Source of the DNA: Candidatus Methylomirabilis sp.
GTDB taxonomy: Bacteria > Methylomirabilota > Methylomirabilia > Methylomirabilales > Methylomirabilaceae
Reading direction: 5' to 3'
DNA: 10,849 bases
Assembly: GCA_041498975.1 (NCBI GenBank)
Contig: JBGQJI010000082.1
Coordinates: forward strand, 1 to 10,849
This document shows, piece after piece, positions 769 to 10,533 of the stretch. Position 1 is the first letter of the stretch. Each line of letters starts with the position of its first letter. Both the position numbers and the translations under genes were made by a program. The notes under the pieces are model-generated. The model saw only the letters and a program-made list of their open reading frames with translations, did not search any database and was not told the origin of the DNA.

Positions 769-1434
769 TGAGTTCTCCTCCTTCTTGGTTTCGGCCAGCT
801 CGTTAACACGCTGCTCATTTTCGTGAAACTCCTTGTTAGTGCGACTGTGTTCACGTCAACGCACCAACTGTCGTACTGGCGGACTACGCCTCCTTTCCGC
901 GAGCGACTTCGCCGTGCCGCAACCATCCACACACATAGGGCACGACAATCGCTTGCTTAGGAAACCTTAGGGGAAGCAGTCCAAGACCGTGGCTGGTTTC
1001 GGTATCCCCCCTTCCCGCCTTTTCGGGTCTCACCTCGCTGTCGGTGTCCACGAGCTACGCAAGAATTGTTCCCACACTTTCATCGACCGGATCGGACTCG
1101 CCCAAGCCATAATAGTGGTGAAACATTCGCCAATTCCGCAAGGCCTTAACTGCGATGTCCAGCGGAAGTGCGGTCACCCACAATCGACCTCCCAATGCGA
1201 AGAGGCATGTAACTGTTACACGTCGAACGCCAAAAGTTCATTGCGTGACAGGCGACGGGGACGCTCGACGAAAGCTGACGTGGCCCTGGCCTACCTGCCC
1301 GGCCTTCGCCTAGGATAGGCGGGGCCATGGATCCAGCCGCCAGCGTGCCCTGCGCCCGCTCGCCCCTGCCGCGCAACTCGCCTGCTACAGCGAGTGGGTC
1401 AAGCCAATAACACACTCCTTTCCACTGTCACAGA

Positions 1435-1499
1435 AGTGTAGGTTACAACCACTACTCTGCCGTCTGGGGAGTCCACATTACGGGGGTGTAATCTGCACC
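1435..1499. repeat. Four-arm putative site-specific recombination site 1 (A1 + B1)
   Basis: A1 = AGTGTAGGTTA-CAACCAC-TACTCTGCCGT (1435-1463), 6-bp linker, B1 = AGTCCACATTA-CGGGGGTG-TAATCTGCACC (1470-1499). 18 bp are identical to 6761-6778 and 20 bp are identical to 5354-5373. Confidence 0.75.
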
Positions 1500-1631
1500 C
1501 TTGGGTGCATCCAACCGGCCCTGAAGCGACTGGTCATCTTTCGTCCCTCGCGCATTTGCAGCCAGCTTCCAATGGAGCCGTGTAGAGACCTTGATGGCAC
1601 CACGTCGAGACGGGAACTTGAGCACCCTGGG

Positions 1632-4600
1632 CTAGCGGTAGAGTGACTCGAGCACGTCTTGGTACTTCTCGGCCACCACCTTGCGCTTCAGCTTCAGGGT
1701 GGGGGTGAGCTCCCCGCTCTCCGGGCTGAAGTCAACGGGCAGCACAGCGAACCTCTTGATCTTGGCGTAGGAGGCGAGCTGCGCGTTCGTCTCTTCGATG
1801 GTGCGCCCGACCCGTTCGACCACCTTCGGGTGCGTGGTCAGCTCGGCGTAATCGGTGAAGGGGATCCCATGTTCCCGAGCGAAGATGGCAAGCTCCGCCT
1901 GGTTGACGGGGATCAATGCCACGGGATACGGCCGCCGATCGCCGTAGACCAACACCTGGCTGAAGAAGGGATCGTCCTTGAGGAGATTCTCGATGTGCTG
2001 GGGCGCGATATTCATCCCCCCGGCGGTCACGATCAGATCCTTCTTCCGATCGGTGATGAAGAGGAATCCCTCCTCGTCGATGTGCCCGATGTCCCCGGTG
2101 TGAAACCAGCCATCGGGGTCGAAGGCCTCAGCGGTCGCCTCGGGCTTCTTGAGGTACCCCCGCGTCGCGATGTTGGGGCCCCGGGCGAGGACCTCGCCGT
2201 CTGGGGCAACCCTGAGCTCCACGCCGGGGAGCGCCTGGCCCACGGAGCCGAACTTGAAGTGATCGAGCCGGTTGAAGGTCAGCGCCGGGCAGGTCTCGGT
2301 GAGACCGTAGCCCTCCAGAATGCAAAGGCCGATGGCGTGGAAGAACTCGGCGATCTCCTGGGACAGCGGAGCCCCGCCCGACACCGCAAACCGGAGGCGG
2401 CCCCCCAGGGCGTGGTGCAGCTTCGCAAAGACCAGCGTATGGGCGACCCAGCGCTTCAGCCTGAGTCCACGAGCGATTGGCTTCTTCTCCTGCTCACGCC
2501 CTGACACCTCTCGGCCCACCCCCAGCGCCCAGGAGAAGATCTTCCGTCTGAGAGGCGGGCACGCCTCGACGTTGGCCAGGATCTTGCCGTAGACCTTCTC
2601 GAAGAGGCGGGGGACGCCGAAGATGAAGTGGGGCTTGACCTCTCGGAGGTTGTCGGCCACCTTGTCCAGGTGTTCGGCAAACGCGGTGATGAGCCCGCGA
2701 TGGACCCCGATGAACGACTCGAGCCGCGCGAAGCAATGCGCGAGCGGGAGGAAGAGCAGGTGGACGTCGCCGGGCTTCACTGGGGTGGCCAGGGCCGAGG
2801 CGGTCAGCGCCGCCAGGTGGTTGCCATGGGTCTGCACGACCCCCTTCGGTGACCCCGTAGTCCCGGAGGTGTAGACAATCGTGGCCGGGTCCTCAGGGCG
2901 GATGGCGTTGAGCTGGTCGGCCAGGGCGGTCTTCAGCCTCTCGGCCTCCGCCCGGCCGCGCAGCCGGAGTTCGTCCCAGGTGAGGACCGACGGCTCCTGC
3001 CCCGCGGACCCGTCCATCAGCACGATCTGTTGCAACCGGTCCATCTTCTCCCACATCTCGAGAACCTTGCTCAGCTGGCCTGCGTCCTCGACGATCAGGG
3101 TGCGGGCCTCGGAATCGTTGACGATGTAGGCAATCTGCTCGGGGGGATACGTGGAGTAGATGGGGACCGTGATGGAGCCCGTGGAGAGGATGGCGAAGTC
3201 GGCCTGGACCCACTCGGCGCGGCTCTGCGAGAGGAGGGCCACCGCGTCCCCCGGCTTCCGGCCGACGGTCAGGAGCCCCAGGGCCAGCTCACGGACGATC
3301 TCGCCGACCTCGGCCCAGGTGAGGGTGTGCCACTCGCCGTCTCGCTTGACCATCTGGGCCGGGAGGCTGGGGCTCCGCTCGATCCGGCTCCAAAACATGC
3401 GCCCAAGGCTCTCGTCCCCCTTGAGGCCCTCCGTCTGCTCTGTCGTGACAGGCTCGCTGCTCCAGCGAGCGCCCTGATTCAGCGAGGGAGTCGAGAGACG
3501 GCTGGTCACGCGATGGACTCGGCGCGCGACAGGCTCCAGGGCCGGTCTCGCCAGGCGTGTCTTGGAGCCATGGTGCTCCTCTGTTCGTGGAGTACCGCTC
3601 TTTTTGTTGGTCGGCATGGGCGGGGTCGCTTCCGCGTCAGGGGTCGTGCTTTTGTTTCCCGAGGAGCTCTCCGTGTGCCACCCATCAACACCCGCTTGGG
3701 CTAGAAGGATTAGATTCACTGTCTGTGGCCGACATCCCAAGTGCGGTCTCGGGGCCTCCGACGGGACGCCAGGGTGCACCCTCGGCTCCCCGGGGCGAGG
3801 TGCGAGCGTGCCTCCATTCCGATCCCTTCCGCTCTCGGTGAGCCGGCGAATCACCACGTCCATGTCCGGCGCATTCCAGGCCGCACAACAGGGGATGCCG
3901 CCATTGTAGCCGCGGGGGAAGCGCGGCCACGCCCGGGCTTTCACGCCCACGATGTGGTAGACCGGGACGCCGATGCCGGAGAGGAAAGCAATCTCCTCCG
4001 CGCTCGGCTCAGGGTAGACCTCGTTAAGGAGCGCCAGGCCCTTCCAGAAGAGCCCGAGATAGTCCGAGAGGACGGCCTTCTTGGTCAGGTTGATGACGAT
4101 GGCCGCGGCGCCCTGGAGGTGGCGAGGCCAGGTGGCATGGTTGACTCGCCGCCCCGGCAGGAGGTCGACGACGTAGGTCTCCCGTTGCGCCAGTCGCTCG
4201 GTCAGCCGACGGCCGACGTACCCCTTACCGCCGAGGAGGATGAGCGGGGTCTCCTCTGGCCAGCCGAGTTCCGCGCGAAGTTGCGCCTCGGCCCGGATCA
4301 CCGCTTCGACGGTGACCTCGAGTTCCGGCCCCTCGGTGCGGAGGCCACGGGCCTGGAACAGGCCCGGCAGGATTCCCGCGAAGCTGAGCTGCTCGGCCCG
4401 TAGGAGCTGCCGGAGGCCCTCAGCACGCCGGAGGAGGGCCTCCAGGTGCGGCCGGTTGTAGGTCGGGTCGCCAGGGTGGAAGAAGTCTTCCTCGACGCTC
4501 GAGATGATCGTCATCAGGCCCACCCGGCCGTTCTGCCGGTAGAGGCCGACCAGCCAAGGAGACCAGCGGCAGCGCCGTTGCACCCAACAATAGGTATAGG

Positions 4601-4859
4601 CGTCGGCATAGTCTTGCGTCACCGGATAGGCGACGAAGACGCGCCTGAGGAAGCCGAAGCGACCATTGAGGCGGCCGATCAACCAGAGCAGCGCGTCGTG
4701 GCGGAGGAGAAGGTTCAGCAGGAGCATCCCGAGTCGCCGAAGCTGGGCCGTACGTCCGCCGCGCTCCTGCCCCCTGCTCTCCGAGATCCCTTCTTGCCGG
4801 CCGAGCACCGCTGGCATCGATCTGGCGCCACCTACCGCAAGCGACTCAGCGTCACTCAC
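1632..4859 (-). CDS. fadD: Long-chain-fatty-acid--CoA ligase (about aa 480-1075) joined through a ~140-aa linker to an N-terminal Rossmann-fold NAD(P)-binding-like domain (about aa 40-340)
   Basis: The C-terminal part has AMP-binding/FACL motifs TIVYTSGTTGSPKG, EGYGLTE, GWFHTGDIG, DRKKDLI and ELTPTLKLKR. The N-terminal part has a glycine-rich LILLGGKGYVG motif. The GTG start is preceded by GAGGTGG. The ligase call is solid, but whether the fusion is translated as one protein is uncertain. Confidence 0.85.
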   Translation of the reverse strand: MSDAESLAVGGARSMPAVLGRQEGISESRGQERGGRTAQLRRLGMLLLNLLLRHDALLWLIGRLNGRFGFLRRVFVAYPVTQDYADAYTYCWVQRRCRWSPWLVGLYRQNGRVGLMTIISSVEEDFFHPGDPTYNRPHLEALLRRAEGLRQLLRAEQLSFAGILPGLFQARGLRTEGPELEVTVEAVIRAEAQLRAELGWPEETPLILLGGKGYVGRRLTERLAQRETYVVDLLPGRRVNHATWPRHLQGAAAIVINLTKKAVLSDYLGLFWKGLALLNEVYPEPSAEEIAFLSGIGVPVYHIVGVKARAWPRFPRGYNGGIPCCAAWNAPDMDVVIRRLTESGRDRNGGTLAPRPGEPRVHPGVPSEAPRPHLGCRPQTVNLILLAQAGVDGWHTESSSGNKSTTPDAEATPPMPTNKKSGTPRTEEHHGSKTRLARPALEPVARRVHRVTSRLSTPSLNQGARWSSEPVTTEQTEGLKGDESLGRMFWSRIERSPSLPAQMVKRDGEWHTLTWAEVGEIVRELALGLLTVGRKPGDAVALLSQSRAEWVQADFAILSTGSITVPIYSTYPPEQIAYIVNDSEARTLIVEDAGQLSKVLEMWEKMDRLQQIVLMDGSAGQEPSVLTWDELRLRGRAEAERLKTALADQLNAIRPEDPATIVYTSGTTGSPKGVVQTHGNHLAALTASALATPVKPGDVHLLFLPLAHCFARLESFIGVHRGLITAFAEHLDKVADNLREVKPHFIFGVPRLFEKVYGKILANVEACPPLRRKIFSWALGVGREVSGREQEKKPIARGLRLKRWVAHTLVFAKLHHALGGRLRFAVSGGAPLSQEIAEFFHAIGLCILEGYGLTETCPALTFNRLDHFKFGSVGQALPGVELRVAPDGEVLARGPNIATRGYLKKPEATAEAFDPDGWFHTGDIGHIDEEGFLFITDRKKDLIVTAGGMNIAPQHIENLLKDDPFFSQVLVYGDRRPYPVALIPVNQAELAIFAREHGIPFTDYAELTTHPKVVERVGRTIEETNAQLASYAKIKRFAVLPVDFSPESGELTPTLKLKRKVVAEKYQDVLESLYR

Positions 4860-5033
4860 CTTAGTCCACCTCTACACTTAGCTAGGAACGGGATTCTGGG
4901 TGCTGTGAGGGCACCCCAGCCAGAGAAGGGGAAGCGGGGAGAGCGCGAACCCAGGGCCGAGCAAGCAACCATGCCCGCCGCTCCTTCCTGGAGGGTGGCG
5001 TTTTGGTGGAGGTCGCGTCCCGCTCCTCCTTCC

Positions 5034-5112
5034 TTTGGCAGCCCGGCTGTCAGCCCTTGCGATGCCCTGTGAGGTTGCGTCCCAGCCTCCGGCCGAGTAT
5101 GTGCCGCTACCG
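5034..5112 (-). ncRNA. GEMM-I (c-di-GMP-I / 3',3'-cGAMP) riboswitch-like element, apparently degenerate
   Basis: Minus strand reads CGGCACATACT-CGGCC-GGA-GGCTG-GGACGCAA-CCTCACAGGG...GACAGCCGGGCTGCCAAA. It has the GGGACGCAA and GACAGCCGGGCTGCC hallmarks of GEMM-I RNAs, and GGCA/TGCC can form P1. It lacks the usual AAAC after ATACT and has a 3-nt loop instead of a GNRA tetraloop. It sits in the 5' leader of 1632..4859. Confidence 0.6.
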
Positions 5113-5146
5113 GAAGCGACCTTTGTACTATGGTGCAGAGGTGGTA

Positions 5147-5163
5147 AGCAATTGCTGTGCCAA
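5147..5163 (-). promoter_or_regulatory. Sigma-54 (-24/-12) promoter
   Basis: Minus strand TTGGCAC-AGCAA-TTGCT matches the consensus YTGGCAC-N5-TTGCW. It points toward the riboswitch-like element and the 1075-aa ORF. Confidence 0.75.
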
Positions 5164-5312
5164 GGGTGTCAACAGTTGAGCATCAGAGGCGTAATGGGAG
5201 GGCGAGTGTCGAGGGGGCTGTGACGATAGTGGGAAGATGGGGAAAGCTTCCTCGAGGGCTGGACACGCTTGAAAGGAAATCAGGGGCAGTTGCTAGAACG
5301 TCGTCGGCTGCT

Positions 5313-5378
5313 CGTGCAAATTTCAACTCCTAATCTTCTGTGTCGTTGAGTGAACATTACGGGGGTGTAATCTTCACC
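5313..5378. repeat. Four-arm putative site-specific recombination site 2 (A2 + B2)
   Basis: A2 = CGTGCAAATTT-CAACTCC-TAATCTTCTGT (5313-5341, diverged), 7-bp linker, B2 = AGTGAACATTA-CGGGGGTG-TAATCTTCACC (5349-5378). B2 is 27/30 identical to B1 and the layout matches site 1. Confidence 0.72.
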
Positions 5379-5505
5379 ACACTCGGTGGCAGACGCGGTT
5401 CCCGTGGGGCACTTCGGCCTTGGGCCTTTTAAGGGATCCGAACTCCTCACATTGCTGCTGCGAGGTGAAATTTTGGAAGATTTCGCACTCGATGGGTCGA
5501 AAACT

Positions 5506-5571
5506 TGGGCCTACTATGGGCCTACTGGGCATGTTGCATAAAAAATGGGCTAGGCAAAATCGCCTAACCAA
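5506..5571. repeat. Tandem 10-bp repeat plus hairpin resembling the end of an integrative element
   Basis: TGGGCCTACT occurs twice (5506-5515, 5517-5526), followed by AAAAATGGGCTAGGC-AAAATC-GCCTAACCAATTGAAA (TAGGC/GCCTA stem). Confidence 0.4.
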
Positions 5572-5688
5572 TTGAAAACGCTTGACGTTTCCCGCTTCAT
5601 GTACTCCTCCGCCTGGTCTGTCAGCCCGGCCTGCTCCAGTGCCCGCTGTGCTCCGCTTACACCATCTTCCGAATGTAACCTTGTATAG

Positions 5689-5826
5689 CTACCTCCCCAG
5701 CAATATCAAAAGTCCTGCCACGATCGCCACGACCGCCAGGACTTGGCTGGGAAGTCTCAGATTCACCAGCGATGACAGGCCCGTCAAGATCAACCAGATC
5801 GCTAACACAATAAACCCGATAGACAT
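5689..5826 (-). CDS. Small two-helix membrane protein (45 aa, MSIGFIVLAIWLILTGLSSLVNLRLPSQVLAVVAIVAGLLILLGR)
   Basis: ATG at 5826 with a strong RBS (GAGGAGGAG) and two hydrophobic segments. It is the 3' part of track ORF 5689..6063, whose upstream extension looks non-coding. Confidence 0.75.
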   Translation of the reverse strand: MSIGFIVLAIWLILTGLSSLVNLRLPSQVLAVVAIVAGLLILLGR

Positions 5827-6084
5827 GCTCTCCTCCTCTCGCGGGCACGTATGGCCCGCCGTGTTGATGGAAACTCCTGCAAGACCGCGCGCCAGTACAG
5901 CGCCGTCCTGATCACCTGGAGCAGCGGGGGAAAGAGCGTGTCGGCCGTCCTGATCTCCACCTGCCGCCACTGCAGGTCCGCCTCGCGCAAGTCGTTCACT
6001 GCAATCGGGAGCTGCTGAATCGTGCGCTCGATCCCCTCCTCCGTCATCGGTCTTGTGCCTCATCGCGCCCTGTGCTACCTTCCA

Positions 6085-6495
6085 TCAGCCCGGAGGCGCG
6101 GCCGCCGGTTGGGCCCTCCCCCTGGGCGGTCTGCAGCAGTACGCGGTGCCGCTGCCTGTGAGGCCGCATGTGAGATTCCAGCCGGCGCTTATCGTCTGGA
6201 ACTTCAGCCTACCCAAGACGGGGACGGGTGATGTGGCGCAGGGTACTCTATTACGGCCGAGATCACAGCCCTCGGTTGTCGAGTCGTTCCCGAGTTGGCC
6301 ACTTTGGTTGGAACGCCAGCAGTAGGCGAGTCCCTCCGCAGTGATGGCACACGTGTGATCCTTGCCGACGCTCACCGACAGGAAGGCCGGCGGCTTCGGG
6401 GTCGTATTGGCTGGCGCTGTGTGACCAGTACTGGCGCTAGCAAGTGCCACCGCCGCGGCAAGCAGTAGGAGTGAGGGCCGTCCAATATCACGCAA
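6085..6495 (-). pseudogene. Truncated RCC1-repeat (beta-propeller) secreted protein
   Basis: A signal peptide is followed by RCC1 motifs VSVGKDHTCAITAEGLAYCW(R)SNQSGQLG and ISAGWNLTCGLTGSGTAYC. The pattern breaks off near 6135, within the second repeat, whereas a full propeller has about 7. The conserved CWG is altered to CWR. Confidence 0.7.
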
Positions 6496-6628
6496 GAACC
6501 ACCCTTCAGGTCGTCAGCCGGTGAGAGTCGTCAACTGGGAGCAGTGACCCGATATTACCCCTTTTTCGGGAAGATGGCCAAAATTTCTTTGCTTGGAGGA
6601 TTGGCTGCGACGAGACCCTTCCGGGTCC

Positions 6629-6760
6629 TGTAGTAGCAAAGTAATTCTGTCAGGGGTTAATGGCCATGTGATGCTGTCAGGGTATGGACACCCTAGCCCT
6701 GACGATGAAAGAGCAGCAGCGAGTCGCCGTCATTGAGCGCGTGTTTCGCGGAGAGGCCAC
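6629..6760 (+). mobile_element. Left end and transposase 5' fragment of an IS1202/ISNCY-type insertion sequence
   Basis: Starts with TGT (6629). It has two 22-bp direct repeats 27 bp apart (TAGCAAAGTAATTCTGTCAGGG 6634-6655 and TGGCCATGTGATGCTGTCAGGG 6661-6682, 17/22 identical). ATG 6684 encodes MDTLALTMKEQQRVAVIERVFRGEAT, which resembles the HTH-leading N-terminus of IS1202-group transposases. The frame runs into site A3 and stops at 6777-6779. Confidence 0.65.
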
Positions 6761-6787
6761 TGTAGGTTACAACCACTAACCTGCACT
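6759..6787. repeat. Simple palindromic putative recombination site A3
   Basis: ACTGTAGGTTA-CAACCAC-TAACCTGCACT with near-perfect inverted arms. The spacer is identical to A1. Confidence 0.75.
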
Positions 6788-7023
6788 AAAGATTATGAAC
6801 GCCCGTGCATGTACTTGCGAAACTGGAATGTCATCGCACGCCTTCGACACGCACTTCCACACTCCGAGGCCACTAGGAAGCGTTTACACTTCAAAAGACA
6901 GAGTTCGTTTCGAGTAGAATTTGGCTAGGCTCTGCCACGCATTTGGAGATCGCCTACTGCGCTGCAATGAGAAGTTGGTGTGCCGGGCCGATCTTGGGTA
7001 CAATTCGTTGAGGCGAAAGAGAG

Positions 7024-7485
7024 ATGGCCCCGACACGCCTAATCATCGACACCGACCCCGGCATCGATGATGCTTTGGCGTTGATCCTGGCGTTCGCCTC
7101 TCCGGAACCGCGTGTGGAGGCGATCACCACTGTGGCCGGCAACGTCGAAGCGGAGCTGGCGGCGCGAAACGCCTGCGCGATTCTGGACGTGATCGACCCG
7201 CACCCAAGACCTCCGGTGGCGGTAGGCGCTGGACAGCCTTTGAAAAGGGGGCTTCGCACGGCGCACGAGTACCACGATGAAGACGGATTGGGTGGCCTGT
7301 CACGCTTGAAGACCAGAGAGGGGAAGCCCCGATACCCTGAACCCCACCAAGTCCAGGCACCGAGGAACGCCTCGGGACTGTTCGCCGAGCGGATCGCCGG
7401 ATGCGGGAAGCAGCAGCAAGCCCGACACGGGCGAATCCTTAATCGGTTTCATTGTCCACCCCTCGCATGTGCCATGGTTGCATGA
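7024..7485 (+). pseudogene. Truncated inosine/uridine-preferring nucleoside hydrolase (N-terminal ~125 aa only)
   Basis: Contains the signature IIDTDPGIDDALA, plus ITTVAGNV and H(D)EDGLG. Similarity ends near 7400, before the expected xGPLTN motif. Full-length members are about 310 aa. Confidence 0.75.
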
Positions 7486-7934
7486 GACCAGCGGATGCTA
7501 CGTGAAAAATGCGAAAAGGCAGTCTTGCGGAGAGACACTTGCCAGATTTGAGACGGCTTGGAACACCTATCGTGTAATTCGCTAGACGAAAGAGCGCTAC
7601 TGAACCCGGCGTGGAAAAGCGGACTGAGAGACTTGCTGTATTCCAGTTCGTGACGCGGAGAATAGATATTCTTCACAATAAGTCGAAGATCCCGCAAGGG
7701 GGCGCGAGACAGGAAACATAATATTCAGCGAAGCCCCACCGGTGCTAGATTTAGGGTGATGGTCTAGTTGTGAATGTTACATAATAGGTGAAGTGGAGAG
7801 GATGATTGGCGAGCAGTACACCCCCCCTCAGGCCTGTCAGTGCACGGTGAGTATATTGACAAGGTTCTTGCCAAGTCGTGGTTCGTGCGCAGCAAGGCAT
7901 GCCGACATGCCGCCTCACTGGTGTTTCCGCACGT

Positions 7935-7986
7935 TGTCGCGCTCTTTGGCAGTCATGTCAAGGCTCTCAACGAGCATCAGCTCCTC
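7935..7986 (-). repeat. 52-bp direct repeat, downstream copy (paired with 9201-9252)
   Basis: 42/52 ungapped identity to 9201-9252, with shared core GAGAGCyTTGACATGACTG on the minus strand. Confidence 0.75.
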
Positions 7987-8020
7987 GGTTCAAAAGGCGC
8001 AAAACCTCAAAGCGAGACGC

Positions 8021-9151
8021 CTAGCGCGCGCAGCGGAACCCGATGTCTTGTTCCTGAATATTCGGGGAGGCAGTGCTGCTCACGAAAAAGACTCCGGCGC
8101 CGGTGCCGTCGACCCAGGCGCCGCCCCGACGCAATGCGCCTGGGAGGGAATCGTTGCTGCCCACGTCGCCGATGGCACTGCGATCGTTCCCGAACCCCGC
8201 GGGGAACCAAACGGTGGCGCCGTCCGCTCGAGCGCCCCAGTCGCCCACCCACTCAGAGACATTCCCCACCATGTCGAAGGCCCCCCACTTCGACACGCAG
8301 GCCGAGCGAGAGCCGGTGTTGACCACACCAGTCACAGGGGTGATGTTGCAGTCTGTCGTGAGGTTATCGGTGCCCGGATCGGGAGTGCCAGCTGCCGCCG
8401 CCTGCCACTCCTGGTTAGTCAGGAGGCGCTTGCCGGAGAGCCGGCAGGCCTGCTCGGCTTGGAACCAGGAGGCGCAGGCGCTGGGGAGTATCCCCGGGAT
8501 GGAGACCGCGTAGAGGGGTGCCGTCCAGTTGCCGGTCACGGGGAAGGTCGAGGGGTAATCGGTGTTGCTGCAGGAATTGGTTCCCACGGCGCCCTGCTGC
8601 GTCGCCCCGTCAGTCATCAGGTCGGCCAGGGTCGCCTTGCCGTCCTGCACCATCTTGATCAGGCCTGTCTGCTCCGCCGGGATGGCCCAGACGCTCGCCT
8701 CGTACTTGTCGATGCAGGTCGTACCCGTCAGCACCGAATCAGGTGGGCACGTGATCGGGAACGCGGGCCCGGGAGGGCCAGCCACGCCCTGGGGGCCCGT
8801 GGGACCCTGCGGGCCCTGGACCCCCGCCTGGTTCCAGTCGAGGGGCGTCTCCTTGGCCCCGATACAGGTCTGGCAGGCGCCGACGATGCGGAGCGTGCCC
8901 CTGGCGGGTTCATAACAGGCGTGGATGAGGCTCGTGTCGCAGCCATGGGCCTGGACGAGCAGGGCCGTGCCGCCGACGAGCAGCGCGGTGACGACCGCGG
9001 CAATGAGGCCGGTCACAACATGGGGGGTGACCAGCCCCGTCAGGACGTGCAAAAGACCGCTCCCGTCATTCTCGGCGCCACTGGTGCTCAGTCCCATAGG
9101 GCCGGAGGGGGAAAACCCCACTACGCTCCACAGGAATTTCTTCGCTTTCAT
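8021..9151 (-). CDS. Exported protein with a short collagen-like repeat and a C-terminal FGE-sulfatase/CLec-fold domain (SUMF1/EgtB/PvdO-like, DGR-target-like)
   Basis: RBS GGGGAGG before the ATG. A hydrophobic segment ends in VQA|HG, followed by seven Gly-X-Y triplets (GVQGPQGPTGPQGVAGPPGPA). FGE-type motifs are CIDKYEAS, GKRLLTNQEWQAAA, FDMVGNVSEWV, RGGAW and terminal IGFRCAR. Confidence 0.88.
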   Translation of the reverse strand: MKAKKFLWSVVGFSPSGPMGLSTSGAENDGSGLLHVLTGLVTPHVVTGLIAAVVTALLVGGTALLVQAHGCDTSLIHACYEPARGTLRIVGACQTCIGAKETPLDWNQAGVQGPQGPTGPQGVAGPPGPAFPITCPPDSVLTGTTCIDKYEASVWAIPAEQTGLIKMVQDGKATLADLMTDGATQQGAVGTNSCSNTDYPSTFPVTGNWTAPLYAVSIPGILPSACASWFQAEQACRLSGKRLLTNQEWQAAAAGTPDPGTDNLTTDCNITPVTGVVNTGSRSACVSKWGAFDMVGNVSEWVGDWGARADGATVWFPAGFGNDRSAIGDVGSNDSLPGALRRGGAWVDGTGAGVFFVSSTASPNIQEQDIGFRCAR

Positions 9152-9200
9152 CTGTCTTTCCTCCCCATACCCATAAAATTGTTTAAGGCTCTTCAGATGC

Positions 9201-9252
9201 TGTCGTGCTCATTCCCAGTCATGTCAAAGCTCTCTAAGAACAGCACCTCCTC
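9201..9252 (-). repeat. 52-bp direct repeat, upstream copy (paired with 7935-7986)
   Basis: 42/52 identity to 7935-7986. It lies 50-100 bp upstream of the 9151 start and contains TTGACA. Confidence 0.75.
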
Positions 9253-9325
9253 CATGAGACAATCCTAGGTTTCTGGACTTTTTTCTAGTGTTTCGCCACA
9301 CACTCGTATACTGTCCGGAACATCT

Positions 9326-9748
9326 TCACGGGGTCGCGAAAACGCTTATCGGGCACGCCAAGCGGCTGCGCGCCGTGGCGCCGATGCTGTCGGCAAACGT
9401 CGTGCTCAAGGCACCCGGCCCGTTGCTGGTAGAAGGGAGGATGATGATCGCGCTGAAGAGCGCCGTGGAACCGAACGCCACTCCACTTTGGTCCTGCCGA
9501 AAGCCGATCTGTGTGATCGTCCCGGAGCCGACCTCGGAGGCGCGGTACACCTCTTGGACACGAATGACTTGTGGAGAGACTACACGATAGCCAAAGGGAA
9601 AGGCATTGTTCCTGTTTCCCTCTGCGTTTGTCTGAGCGTTCGGGGCGACCACCTGAACGGTCCCGCCAACTGCAGGGACGACGCTCAGCAACACAGCGAT
9701 GAACCCCAGCCACCCGAGCACCCACCCAGTTCTTGTCGCGCTTCGCAT
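9326..9748 (-). pseudogene. Secreted protein, probably C-terminally truncated
   Basis: ATG at 9748 with RBS GAGGAGGG and a signal peptide (MRSATRTGWVLGWLGFIAVLLSVVPAVG). The mature sequence (APNAQTNAEGNRNNAFPF...QEVYRASE...ITQIGFRQD...LSTTFADSIGA) looks like an extracellular beta-rich domain and becomes non-protein-like near 9380. Confidence 0.55.
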
Positions 9749-9842
9749 GGCCCGTTCCCTCCTCGTTATTGGTCGTACGCGCTCAAGCTTTCTCCCGCAA
9801 GACCACAGAGATGCCCACGACACGAACGCTTCTTCCGGCACT

Positions 9843-9888
9843 AAAACACGAACGCCCTCTCAGGCCGAACGAGACCCGAGGGGGCGTT
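9843..9888 (-). terminator. Terminator/attenuator-like hairpin in the leader of the 9748 gene
   Basis: Minus-strand AACGCCCCCTCGGGTC-TCGTTC-GGCCTGAGAGGGCGTT forms a 16-bp stem with 1 mismatch and 2 G-U pairs, followed by CGTGTTTT. Confidence 0.5.
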
Positions 9889-9973
9889 GCTAGGTAGCGC
9901 GCCGACCGAATTGCAAGGGATGGCGGAAGTCTTATGGTCACCCCGGGTGCATCACGATCACCTATACGGGGCG

Positions 9974-10002
9974 AGCATGTCGACGGCTACCCGGGATGTC
10001 AA
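9974..10002 (-). promoter_or_regulatory. Putative sigma-70 promoter
   Basis: Minus strand TTGACA-N17-CATGCT, about 30 bp inside site A4 and pointing into the module. Confidence 0.5.
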
Positions 10003-10034
10003 GCTTTTTCTGGAACCCCTCCCCCGATCATGGG

Positions 10035-10063
10035 AGTGTAGGTTACAATCACTAATCTACACC
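10035..10063. repeat. Simple palindromic putative recombination site A4
   Basis: AGTGTAGGTTA-CAATCAC-TAATCTACACC, 17/18 identical to the core shared by A1 and A3. Confidence 0.75.
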
Positions 10064-10533
10064 AGCCATGCTATGGCCGACCTGACTAGACAGACCGTGA
10101 GCGATGGAAAGGCAAGAACCGGGGACGGCTCGGTGGGGATTCTGATATGCCACTGCAGCGGGTGTTGTGGCTGTAAAGAATTAGCAGAAATTAGTGGAGC
10201 ACATGTCACAGTGTAAAGAACTCACACGGGCTTTTCGATTTGTGTTCAAGTAGAAGTGATCCAGGGGCGCCACAGGGGTCGGCTGACGGTGCCTCCACGT
10301 TGAACACGGGCACGGTGCCCGTGGCATGGCGACCCGCTGCACCAGGCGCAGGAGGTCCTGCACTACGGGATAGGGCTTCACGACGCAAGCTCCCAGCGCA
10401 CCGCACCTAGGGAATTGGCAAACCCATCACGAGAAATCCGGTACTTAGCCCCTAATTGGTGTCCGGTACCTTTTTGCGCGGGTCCGGGCCGCGGCCTGAC
10501 CATCCACGACGGGGGAGCAACACCACTTCATGC

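Follow-up and report, generated by a model that had tools for sequence, protein, structure and literature searches.

Short palindromic sites of two spacer classes at segment junctions in a Methylomirabilota chromosome, possible core sites of a site-specific recombinase

Gene content of the locus

The window, i.e., the whole stretch of 10,849 nucleotides of Candidatus Methylomirabilis sp. that was analyzed, contains gene fragments and an insertion sequence (IS) remnant. Six short palindromic sites separate blocks of 1.4-3.9 kb that have their own -35-like boxes and in some cases hold several genes or gene fragments. Pfam confirmed the AMP-binding (acyl-CoA ligase) open reading frame, the RCC1 fragment, an FGE-sulfatase protein and a hydrolase fragment (IU_nuc_hydro). 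The riboswitch proposed for the block at 1500-5312 found no match in Rfam at E-values up to 1, and the promoter claim was not borne out, as a simple sigma-70 scan called no full promoter beside any site. The window was said to lack a recombinase, and a domain scan of 111 reading frames from it agrees. With 39 ORFs selected from the 78 listed for two related contigs (L001 and L002, see below), about 28 kb were covered overall, and none of these frames gave a recombinase, integrase or transposase domain.

Two classes of palindromic sites

All six sites are present at the predicted coordinates, all strictly intergenic, as imperfect palindromes of 29-30 bp on the + strand. The four A sites have an 11-7-11 geometry (two 11-bp arms around a 7-bp spacer) and the two B sites an 11-8-11 geometry, which supports the claim that they are built like recombinase core sites. 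A1 (1435-1463; AGTGTAGGTTA-CAACCAC-TACTCTGCCGT) has a weak right arm and arms complementary at 6/11 positions, and A2 (5313-5341; CGTGCAAATTT-CAACTCC-TAATCTTCTGT) is degenerate, with 5/11 complementary positions and an E-value of 1.3e-5 to the A profile. A3 (6759-6787; ACTGTAGGTTA-CAACCAC-TAACCTGCACT) and A4 (10035-10063; AGTGTAGGTTA-CAATCAC-TAATCTACACC) are singlets with arms complementary at 9/11 positions. B1 (1470-1499) and B2 (5349-5378) both carry the spacer CGGGGGTG, their arms being complementary at 8/11 and 9/11 positions, respectively. A1-B1 and A2-B2 form doublets in which A is the left member and 6-7 nt lie between A and B; owing to their low arm complementarity, both of these B-adjoining A sites are poor palindromes. 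A second palindrome, TGCACCC-TT-GGGTGCA at 1494-1509, overlaps the right arm of B1.

With up to three mismatches, the degenerate 11-7-11 pattern has no match in the window other than the four A sites, and the 11-8-11 pattern none other than the two B sites; the chance expectation is 0.01 for each pattern (200 shuffles). As predicted, all A spacers read one way on the + strand, and so do all B spacers. The idea that A resembles an inverted B fared less well: the A profile ranks B1 and B2 directly behind the six A sites, on the minus strand, with E-values of 0.57 and 0.94, which points only faintly to an inversion. All 18 half-sites of the nine sites known from three genomes belong to one family, with an arm close to AGTGNAGRTTA. 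In A sites, the left arm and the spacer are almost invariant and the right arms are all different (6/6), as expected if the two halves of a site travel with different flanks. A1-A4 carry three different spacers, and the A4 orthologs from three metagenome sequences differ from one another at two positions of the spacer.

Folding of single sites gave no strong hairpin (-1.8 to -5.1 kcal/mol, mostly no better than shuffles), and neither A-B doublet folds, as a single strand, into one long hairpin. No target-site duplication was seen by eye around B1...A2, B2...A3, B...A of L002, or the doublets.

Occurrence in other genomes and ends of similarity

Among 185,579 species genomes scanned, the 21-nt A core turned up outside the window on only two contigs, L001 and L002, both from Methylomirabilota, which indicates a lineage-restricted site family of low copy number there. 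Each of them has a single A core, and L002 also has a B site. The window holds three A cores within 8.6 kb, which suggests a local cluster rather than a repeat dispersed in those relatives; in both, the sites are rare and not scattered genome-wide. The two spacer classes hold up and each is retained across genomes, CAACCAC being common to A1, A3 and the A sites of L001 and L002, and the B spacer being identical in 3/3 B sites (B1, B2 and that of L002). Both sites of L002 are enclosed in 4.8 kb of DNA that has, at either end, a copy of a perfect 51-bp repeat derived from the 3' part of tRNA-Asn.

A block of 220 bp to the left of A4, of which A4 forms the right end, is shared with L002 and L001. 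Window positions 9851-10069 align to L002 9812-10032, and the match ends 6 nt beyond the A site. To the right of A, the window encodes an FA_hydroxylase, L002 a tRNA-Asn and recR, and L001 selB; no protein-coding gene is common to the three loci. Similarly, the B site of L002 matches B2 and 15 nt rightward, and no match extends to the left of B2. A whole module was not seen in two contexts in these comparisons, in which only the ends recur (220 bp by A, 15 bp by B). The A site, identical at 25-27/29 positions between genomes, is the best-conserved part of the block, which is preserved in islands: A site 27/29, -35 box 12/12, terminator hairpin 30/38 and, next to the site, a linker at 14/31. 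Since the flank of a conserved element diverges fast, the end of similarity at a site places the true breakpoint only loosely. The block includes a conserved non-coding stretch (9843..9970, minus strand) that is read away from A4 and ends in a terminator-like hairpin of 16 pairs at 9851-9888. This stretch, possibly a small RNA or a leader, had no match in Rfam.

Sequence motifs and an IS remnant beside the sites

A TTGAC -35-like box lies downstream of 5/6 sites of the window and of all three sites of the relatives. The gap from the box to the nearest site is 32 nt for A1 and A4, 33 nt for A of L002, 69 nt for A of L001, 70 nt for B of L002, and 140 nt for A2, with B1 and B2 located just beyond A1 and A2 relative to the boxes. 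On the minus strand of the window, these are TTGACA at 9997..10002 (A4; invariant in three genomes), TTGACC at 1397..1402 (A1; read by eye), both uncalled by the promoter scan, and TTGACA at 5167..5172 (A2). A fixed distance to promoters had been named as the mark of an operator; the sites do lie upstream of TTGAC boxes, at distances that vary. Another motif, CTCGGTGG, is found on the + strand at 5382..5389, 3 nt to the right of B2, and at 10129..10136, 65 nt to the right of A4; it also follows the B site of L002.

The IS remnant predicted in the block at 5379-6758 proved to be a truncated ISNCY-type transposase gene of 31 codons (6684..6779, + strand), whose final three codons and stop codon correspond to the A3 spacer. 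All 12 longer relatives align solely to residues 1-27 or 1-28, and the first 3 nt of A3 encode the last shared residue. A second public sequence (P0121) presents the same fused transposase-A3 end. At the edges of the sites, similarity between the genomes breaks off, as does an IS gene. The IS junction falls in the outer part of the A3 left arm and not in the spacer, where tyrosine recombinases cut, which counts against the reading as recombination sites; a deletion that stopped at the base of the palindrome would also explain the junction. The rest of the interrupted transposase gene was not found beyond A4.

Possible role as recombinase core sites

We tentatively favor, at somewhat less than an even chance, the view that A and B are recombinase core sites whose enzyme is encoded at another place in the genome. 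This site-specific recombinase would be dimeric, most probably a tyrosine recombinase, and would bind both as double-stranded sites made of two inverted 11-bp arms around an asymmetric spacer, 7 bp (CAACCAC-like) in A and 8 bp in B, and the two spacer versions should not recombine with one another. We infer strand exchange and the mobility of whole segments: exchange between sites may have brought unrelated segments together in variable regions of Methylomirabilota chromosomes that resemble islands, so that the sites would now mark segment junctions. Inverted arms around an asymmetric 6-8-bp spacer are the architecture of the loxP, FRT and dif cores, in which spacer variants define pairing, and the A and B sites share it. 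They differ from these cores by the absence of a known recombinase, by three A spacers in one region, which would hamper exchange between A sites by a classical tyrosine recombinase, and by an IS junction in the outer arm. The close A-B doublets have no role in this recombinase model, and two further observations speak against it: the lack of a recombinase in the frames scanned at the three loci, and the TTGAC boxes downstream of most sites, three of them at 32-33 nt. The original reading of the region as a module-capture array is partly sustained, by site geometry, spacer classes, rarity and ends of similarity, and not by dif likeness or whole-module recurrence; with such mixed support, a new cassette system is a possibility.

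Alternative explanations

It is somewhat unlikely that a dimeric transcription factor uses the sites as operators or upstream activating sites to control a set of leftward promoters in the island; the "modules" would then be ordinary operons, each driven by a regulated promoter of its own. Such a role would fit the TTGAC(A/C) box found downstream, in the sense of minus-strand genes, of every site but A3, and the separate islands of conservation in the shared block, which resemble a regulated gene. Tandem palindromes like the A-B doublet are also common in regulatory regions, and the scanned reading frames hold no trace of a recombinase nearby. Global regulators of mobile elements offer a parallel: their operators, such as the KorB sites of IncP plasmids, are palindromes repeated within one element at varied distances upstream of several promoters. 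In contrast to these, the A and B spacers are conserved, at least as well as the outer arms, and the same arms occur with two spacer lengths, which a rigid dimer would rarely tolerate. Gaps of 32-140 nt, unequally conserved left and right arms, boxes that the sigma-70 scan did not call as promoters, and the absence of a regulator gene from the window (Pfam) also speak against operators, as does A3, which lacks a box to its left and directly adjoins the truncated transposase gene. Small extragenic palindromes akin to REP/BIME or REPIN, spread by a RAYT-type or other trans-acting enzyme or kept as structural elements, are an unlikely source of the sites; the "array" would then represent several intergenic insertions. 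The two sequence types of about 30 bp, present as singlets and as probably inverted doublets 6-7 nt apart, recall such elements, and A sites contain GTAG, a REP hallmark. Deletions are known to end at palindromes, which would explain the A3 junction. However, the two related genomes have a single A core each and other species representatives none, folds are weak and doublets yield no single long hairpin, and neither RAYT nor another Y1 transposase was found in the frames scanned at the three loci. One A copy, moreover, has been under long-term constraint, kept at 25-27/29 while its linker decayed, unlike a decaying selfish copy.

Very unlikely, in our view, are transposon or MITE ends, with B...A as terminal inverted repeats of cargo elements or the 65-bp A-B doublet as a miniature element. 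The weak inversion of B versus A, the conserved inner ends with differing cargo, and the TGT at the start of the A arm, where the IS gene is interrupted, would agree with this, but each "end" is itself palindromic, target-site duplications are lacking by eye, no matching transposase was found, and the remainder of the interrupted gene is absent beyond A4.

Finally, we regard as extremely improbable that the sites are attC of an integron array lacking an integrase (CALIN) or Xer sites of the dif type, like those of pdif modules. Like attC, the sites are repeated between gene blocks, and a doublet comprises two inverted pairs of arms, four in all, around spacers of 7 and 8 bp, a layout that recalls the two "simple sites" of the 59-base element. 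However, they have no R''/R' boxes and no intI in the window, and the blocks differ in their size (1.4-3.9 kb), in their own -35-like boxes and, for some, in holding several genes or fragments. As predicted, the sites are not canonical attC, pairs of RYYYAAC...GTTRRRY 50-150 nt apart being absent from the window (shuffle mean 1.0). The predicted match to dif arms (7-8/11 per arm) is correct as a count, B1 and B2 scoring 15/22, and not in its significance: 47/200 Markov shuffles of the window reach at least 15, which places the likeness to dif and cer at chance level. The folding, dif-shuffle and attC-box results largely refute both identifications.

Compared to the pdif sites and dif modules of Acinetobacter plasmids, served by XerC/XerD, the A and B sites are chromosomal, belong to Methylomirabilota, and have spacers of 7 or 8 bp instead of 6. 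They lack the inner ATAA/TTATG motif, which almost every one of the 25 dif-like sites in a published table carries (Table 8 in PMC10132070). In addition, two sites lie side by side here whereas neighboring dif modules share one, and modules do not recur as a whole. The resemblance lies in short sites with 11-bp inverted arms, located between unrelated gene blocks, with probably inverted neighbors (B versus A) and, as proposed here, a recombinase encoded elsewhere. It extends to an association with IS, which was described for IS1202-family elements next to dif-like sites (PMC10132070) and is also seen here.

Architecture of the palindromic sites

Six palindromic sites occur in the window exactly where the original prediction had placed them. 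The four A sites, at 1435-1463 (A1), 5313-5341 (A2), 6759-6787 (A3) and 10035-10063 (A4), consist of 11-bp arms around a 7-bp spacer, and the two B sites, at 1470-1499 (B1) and 5349-5378 (B2), of 11-bp arms around an 8-bp spacer. A1 and B1 form a doublet with a gap of 6 nt, A2 and B2 a second one with a gap of 7 nt, and A3 and A4 are singlets. When degenerate 11-7-11 and 11-8-11 patterns were searched with up to three mismatches, these sites were the only matches in the window, against a shuffle expectation of 0.01. The motif AGTGNAGRTTA fits all 12 window half-sites, and strong matches to a half-site PWM, built from 18 half-sites of the window and of two related loci, fall nearly all within paired sites.

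Arm palindromy is good in the singlets A3 and A4 (9/11) and poor in A1 (6/11) and A2 (5/11), both of which lie 6-7 nt from a B site; left and right arms are kept to unequal degree. The inner bases read ATTA/TAAT in B and GTTA/TAAY in A. Three different spacers are present among the four window A sites, CAACCAC being common to A1 and A3, with one base changed in A4 and two in A2, and the spacer CGGGGGTG is common to B1 and B2. Applied to the B sites, an A profile scores best on the opposite strand, with weak E values of 0.57 and 0.94; by eye, the reverse complement of the B spacer agrees with the A spacer at 5/8 positions, as compared to 1/8 in direct orientation. Single sites fold weakly, at -1.8 to -5.1 kcal/mol, and in most cases shuffled sequences do at least as well. 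A second palindrome, TGCACCC-TT-GGGTGCA at window 1494-1509, shares bases with the B1 right arm; CCAC...GGTGG stands at the corresponding position after B2 and after the B-like site of a related contig (L002, below).

The sites had been announced as distinct from integrons, and this holds, as the window shows neither attC boxes nor a long hairpin. Pairs of RYYYAAC...GTTRRRY spaced 50-150 nt apart were absent from both window strands (shuffle mean 1.0). One strand of an attC site forms a single long hairpin pairing its two halves, whereas the A-B doublets form separate small hairpins, with doublet folds of -7.7 to -12.8 kcal/mol (z -1.5 to -2.7). The proposed likeness of the B sites to the arms of E. 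coli dif did not survive, since the agreement of 15/22 positions with the quoted dif arms is reached in 47/200 shuffled windows, i.e., at chance level. Moreover, dif and pdif sites are 28 bp long with an 11-6-11 layout, whereas the spacers here measure 7 and 8 bp, and the inner motif ATAA/TTATG, kept in nearly all dif-like sites of Table 8 of PMC10132070, is absent from both A and B. The sites are thus not demonstrably dif-like, and it is extremely improbable that they are attC or dif. In M. oxyfera, a group IIC-attC intron is described, in the passage of PMC3001079 that deals with it, as not located in an integron array.

Related loci in Methylomirabilota

A 21-nt A core matching A1, A3 and A4 was used to scan 185,579 species genomes (representatives), a collection in which the window's own genome is either absent or masked. 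It was found in two contigs only, L001 and L002, both from Methylomirabilota MAGs, which indicates that the site family is lineage-restricted and low-copy in those genomes and counts against a dispersed REP family there. L001 carries a single A site (L001-A, 1119-1147). L002 carries a single A site (L002-A, 9998-10026) and a single B-like site (L002-B, 8464-8493) with the spacer CGGGGGTG, B being left of A, in the same order as in the window.

By nucleotide comparison, the sequence common to these loci is restricted to the sites and their immediate surroundings; translated comparison of the loci revealed no shared genes and, elsewhere, just short, low-scoring matches. Window 9851-10069 aligns with L002 9812-10032 (73.5% over 223 nt), and part of it also aligns with L001. 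From left to right, the shared block at A4 comprises a terminator-like hairpin, about 110 nt, an invariant CTTGACAT box and the A site, and it ends 6 nt past the site. The genes to the right of A are unrelated, namely FA_hydroxylase in the window, tRNA-Asn and recR in L002, and selB in L001. At the other type of site, B2 and the 15 nt that follow match L002-B, with no match left of B2. Across the two related loci, what recurs is therefore restricted to module ends (the 220 bp that precede A and the 15 bp that follow B), and the cargo is different every time.

The A site and the -35 box are the best-conserved parts of the shared block. Three pairwise comparisons gave identities of 27/29, 25/29 and 26/29 for the A site, and the adjoining linker is conserved at 14/31 positions; conservation so far above that of the linker indicates that the site, spacer included, is under selection. 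An ORF running across A4 has three metagenome relatives, all of which represent this one locus and share its right flank; in them the site is kept and two spacer positions are variable. The same ORF-based search for further site contexts returned no relatives of the frame across A1-B1.

Two perfect copies of a 51-bp 3' portion of tRNA-Asn(GTT), in direct repeat at L002 5335-5385 and 10149-10199, bracket 4.8 kb containing both sites, and ARAGORN calls the partial copy a tRNA as well. Genes for SRAP, a phosphoribosyltransferase-like protein, an AhpC fragment and a cupin are encoded in this stretch, in which no integrase was found. Repeats of a tRNA 3' part without an integrase between them are typical of decayed tRNA-linked islands, and the 4.8-kb stretch shows this feature.

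An insertion sequence remnant joined to A3

A transposase remnant, a 31-codon ORF at 6684-6776, runs into A3 and has 13 relatives (E up to 0.001) among 1.84 billion representatives. The 12 longer relatives align to residues 1-27 or 1-28 only and go on as ...LTMAEAAMVLGVSERQ..., whereas the window reads ...ATVGYNH-stop; the longest of all matches the NCBIfam ISNCY transposase model with an E value of 3.5e-33. The first three bases of A3 encode the last shared transposase residue, and the A3 spacer accounts for the last three codons and the stop of the remnant ORF. An identical fused end is present in P0121, a second public sequence, so the junction was inherited and is no assembly artefact.

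Window 6630-6776 resembles an ISNCY-type insertion sequence at its left end: it starts with TGT at about 6630, and two 25-nt direct repeats (6631-6655 and 6658-6682) precede the first 26-28 transposase codons. The remnant has no match in the plasmid collection. IS1202, a published relative family, targets dif-like sites, and PMC10132070 reports elements of this family next to such sites; here, however, it is the IS interior and not the IS end that abuts A3. A continuation of the transposase after A4 appeared similar by eye, and tblastn and a local-alignment null model gave nothing above chance.

Promoter-like boxes and a conserved non-coding unit

Viewed along the minus-strand genes, a TTGAC(A/C) box is located downstream of every site except A3, with site-to-box gaps of 32 nt for both A1 and A4, 33 nt for L002-A, 69 nt for L001-A, 70 nt for L002-B and 140 nt for A2. 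None of these boxes is called as a promoter by a simple sigma-70 scan because their -10 regions are poor, and the box adjoining A4 is invariant in three genomes. The original prediction had considered that copies scattered genome-wide at a fixed distance from promoters would denote transcription-factor operators; a link to promoter-like boxes is seen here, with gaps of 32-33 nt at three sites and wider ones at the others.

A conserved non-coding unit lies beside A in the window (9843-9970, minus strand), in L002 (9802-9933) and in L001 (882-1016). After the invariant CTTGACAT box come about 110 nt that are partly conserved, a 16-pair terminator-like hairpin and a T-rich run, a succession that gives the A4 block the look of a leader or small RNA gene preceded by a palindrome, the latter having an operator-like appearance. 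The unit may function as a small RNA or, ahead of unrelated small-protein genes, as an attenuator-type leader. It has no Rfam match, and no further copies of the RNA block were found near A1 or A2. The riboswitch predicted in the acyl-CoA ligase block was not recovered, Rfam identifying no riboswitch or other RNA family in the window at E up to 1 apart from a single weak, unrelated match at 50-100. No tRNA was found in the window.

The short motif TCGGTGG occurs within 100 nt to the right of 5/7 site loci, at offsets of +3 to +94 (window 5383 and 10130, L001 1165, L002 8496 and 10120), a count reached by 0/2000 random segment sets. L001 also has an inverted copy at 1069, left of its A site. 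Decayed B copies right of the singlet A sites seemed plausible by eye and were unsupported by MAFFT and by the B profile at E up to 50; the motif alone remains after these tests.

Nature of the sites

In the generic core site of a tyrosine recombinase, two arms of 9-13 bp in inverted orientation enclose an asymmetric spacer of 6-8 bp, and the sites show this geometry. Together with it, we weighed in the same direction the combination of common arms with two conserved spacer classes, the unequal arm conservation, the rarity and clustering of the sites, their island context, and the fact that both sequence similarity and an IS gene end at site edges. On these sequence features, recombinase core sites are the reading that we favor, at somewhat less than an even chance. 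The association with TTGAC boxes, the diversity of spacers among the window A sites and the variable spacers at the A4 locus complicate a cassette reading. As had been noted originally, the window itself is devoid of a recombinase: the 111 reading frames scanned in it, including 68 stop-to-stop frames from non-coding stretches, contain no recombinase, integrase (intI/Phage_integrase included) or transposase domain, and the latter 68 gave nothing relevant as recombinase remnants. Similarly, the ORFs that were scanned in the window and related loci, about 28 kb in all, revealed neither a recombinase nor a Y1 transposase, the type that a RAYT gene flanked by REPs would encode. This negative search speaks for the sites being operators, to which the link with -35 boxes and the footprint-like pattern of conservation also point; since A3 lacks a box, the gaps elsewhere spread over 32-140 nt and the boxes escape the sigma-70 scan, such a regulatory role would be rather unlikely.

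The pattern of doublets and singlets is also reminiscent of REP elements. A REPIN is made of two inverted REPs, as stated in the part of PMC3337134 that defines it, and doublets 6 and 7 nt apart fit a layout of two REPs and a short spacer, the inverted orientation being weakly supported. However, the copy number is low, with one A core in each of the two related genomes and none in any other of the 185,579 species representatives, the folds are weak, and the site is under long-term sequence constraint, so we regard a REP- or REPIN-like element as unlikely. Transposon or MITE ends, another origin that had been envisaged as contradicting recombination, are highly unlikely, given that by eye no target-site duplication is present at B1...A2, B2...A3, the L002 B...A pair or the doublets.

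If the sites are indeed recombinase core sites, they could belong to a segment-exchange system of Methylomirabilota, distinct from integrons and Xer/pdif modules, with promoter-bearing cassettes and two core classes. In such a system, A (7-bp spacer) and B (8-bp spacer) would not recombine with each other, a single recombinase encoded elsewhere would act on both, and each exchangeable segment would carry its own promoter and leader at the A end. This more specific scheme is doubtful as a whole. Recombination sites of this kind would represent a new way of shuffling chromosomal gene blocks, without integron integrase or canonical dif sites, in a poorly studied and uncultivated phylum of nitrite-dependent methane oxidisers, and they might serve as markers for the enzyme and for a mobile gene pool. 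Operators would instead delimit a small regulon of Methylomirabilis, together with a leader or small RNA that lacks annotation. Rfam has no match for the site family, and no description was found in the Methylomirabilis literature on integrons or palindromic repeats; the plasmid collection yielded no match for the T-A block, and the A1-B1 doublet was absent from plasmids and phages alike.

Gene content

Pfam confirmed several genes of the region. The AMP-binding (acyl-CoA ligase) domain forms one half of a 1075-aa ORF (1632-4859, minus strand), in which an N-terminal portion of about 450 aa without Pfam family, bearing a GGKGYVG Rossmann-like motif, is joined to a FadD-like acyl-CoA ligase; this frame may represent a gene fusion or the read-through of two genes. 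The RCC1 fragment (6085-6495) and a nucleoside hydrolase truncated to the first 107 of 297 profile positions (7024-7485) have break points that do not coincide with A or B sites, indicating that other rearrangements also hit the region. The end of a fatty-acid hydroxylase gene starts from 10534. The FGE-sulfatase protein (8021-9151, minus strand), of C-type-lectin-like fold, includes a short Gly-Pro stretch resembling collagen. Diversity-generating retroelements frequently target proteins of this type, and neither a template repeat nor a reverse transcriptase was found in the window.

A 212-aa protein encoded at 130-768 on the minus strand belongs to no Pfam family and has 202 relatives, the 120 listed being 55-97% identical. 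At least three relatives are named from Gammaproteobacteria, Parcubacteria and Saccharimonadales MAGs, many are on contigs of 1-2 kb, and the gene looks widely transferred. Finally, a 52-nt direct repeat, 81% identical and containing CATGTCAAG, is present at 7935-7986 and 9201-9252; the second copy is located just upstream of the minus-strand FGE-sulfatase gene, and the repeat is probably a duplicated promoter region.
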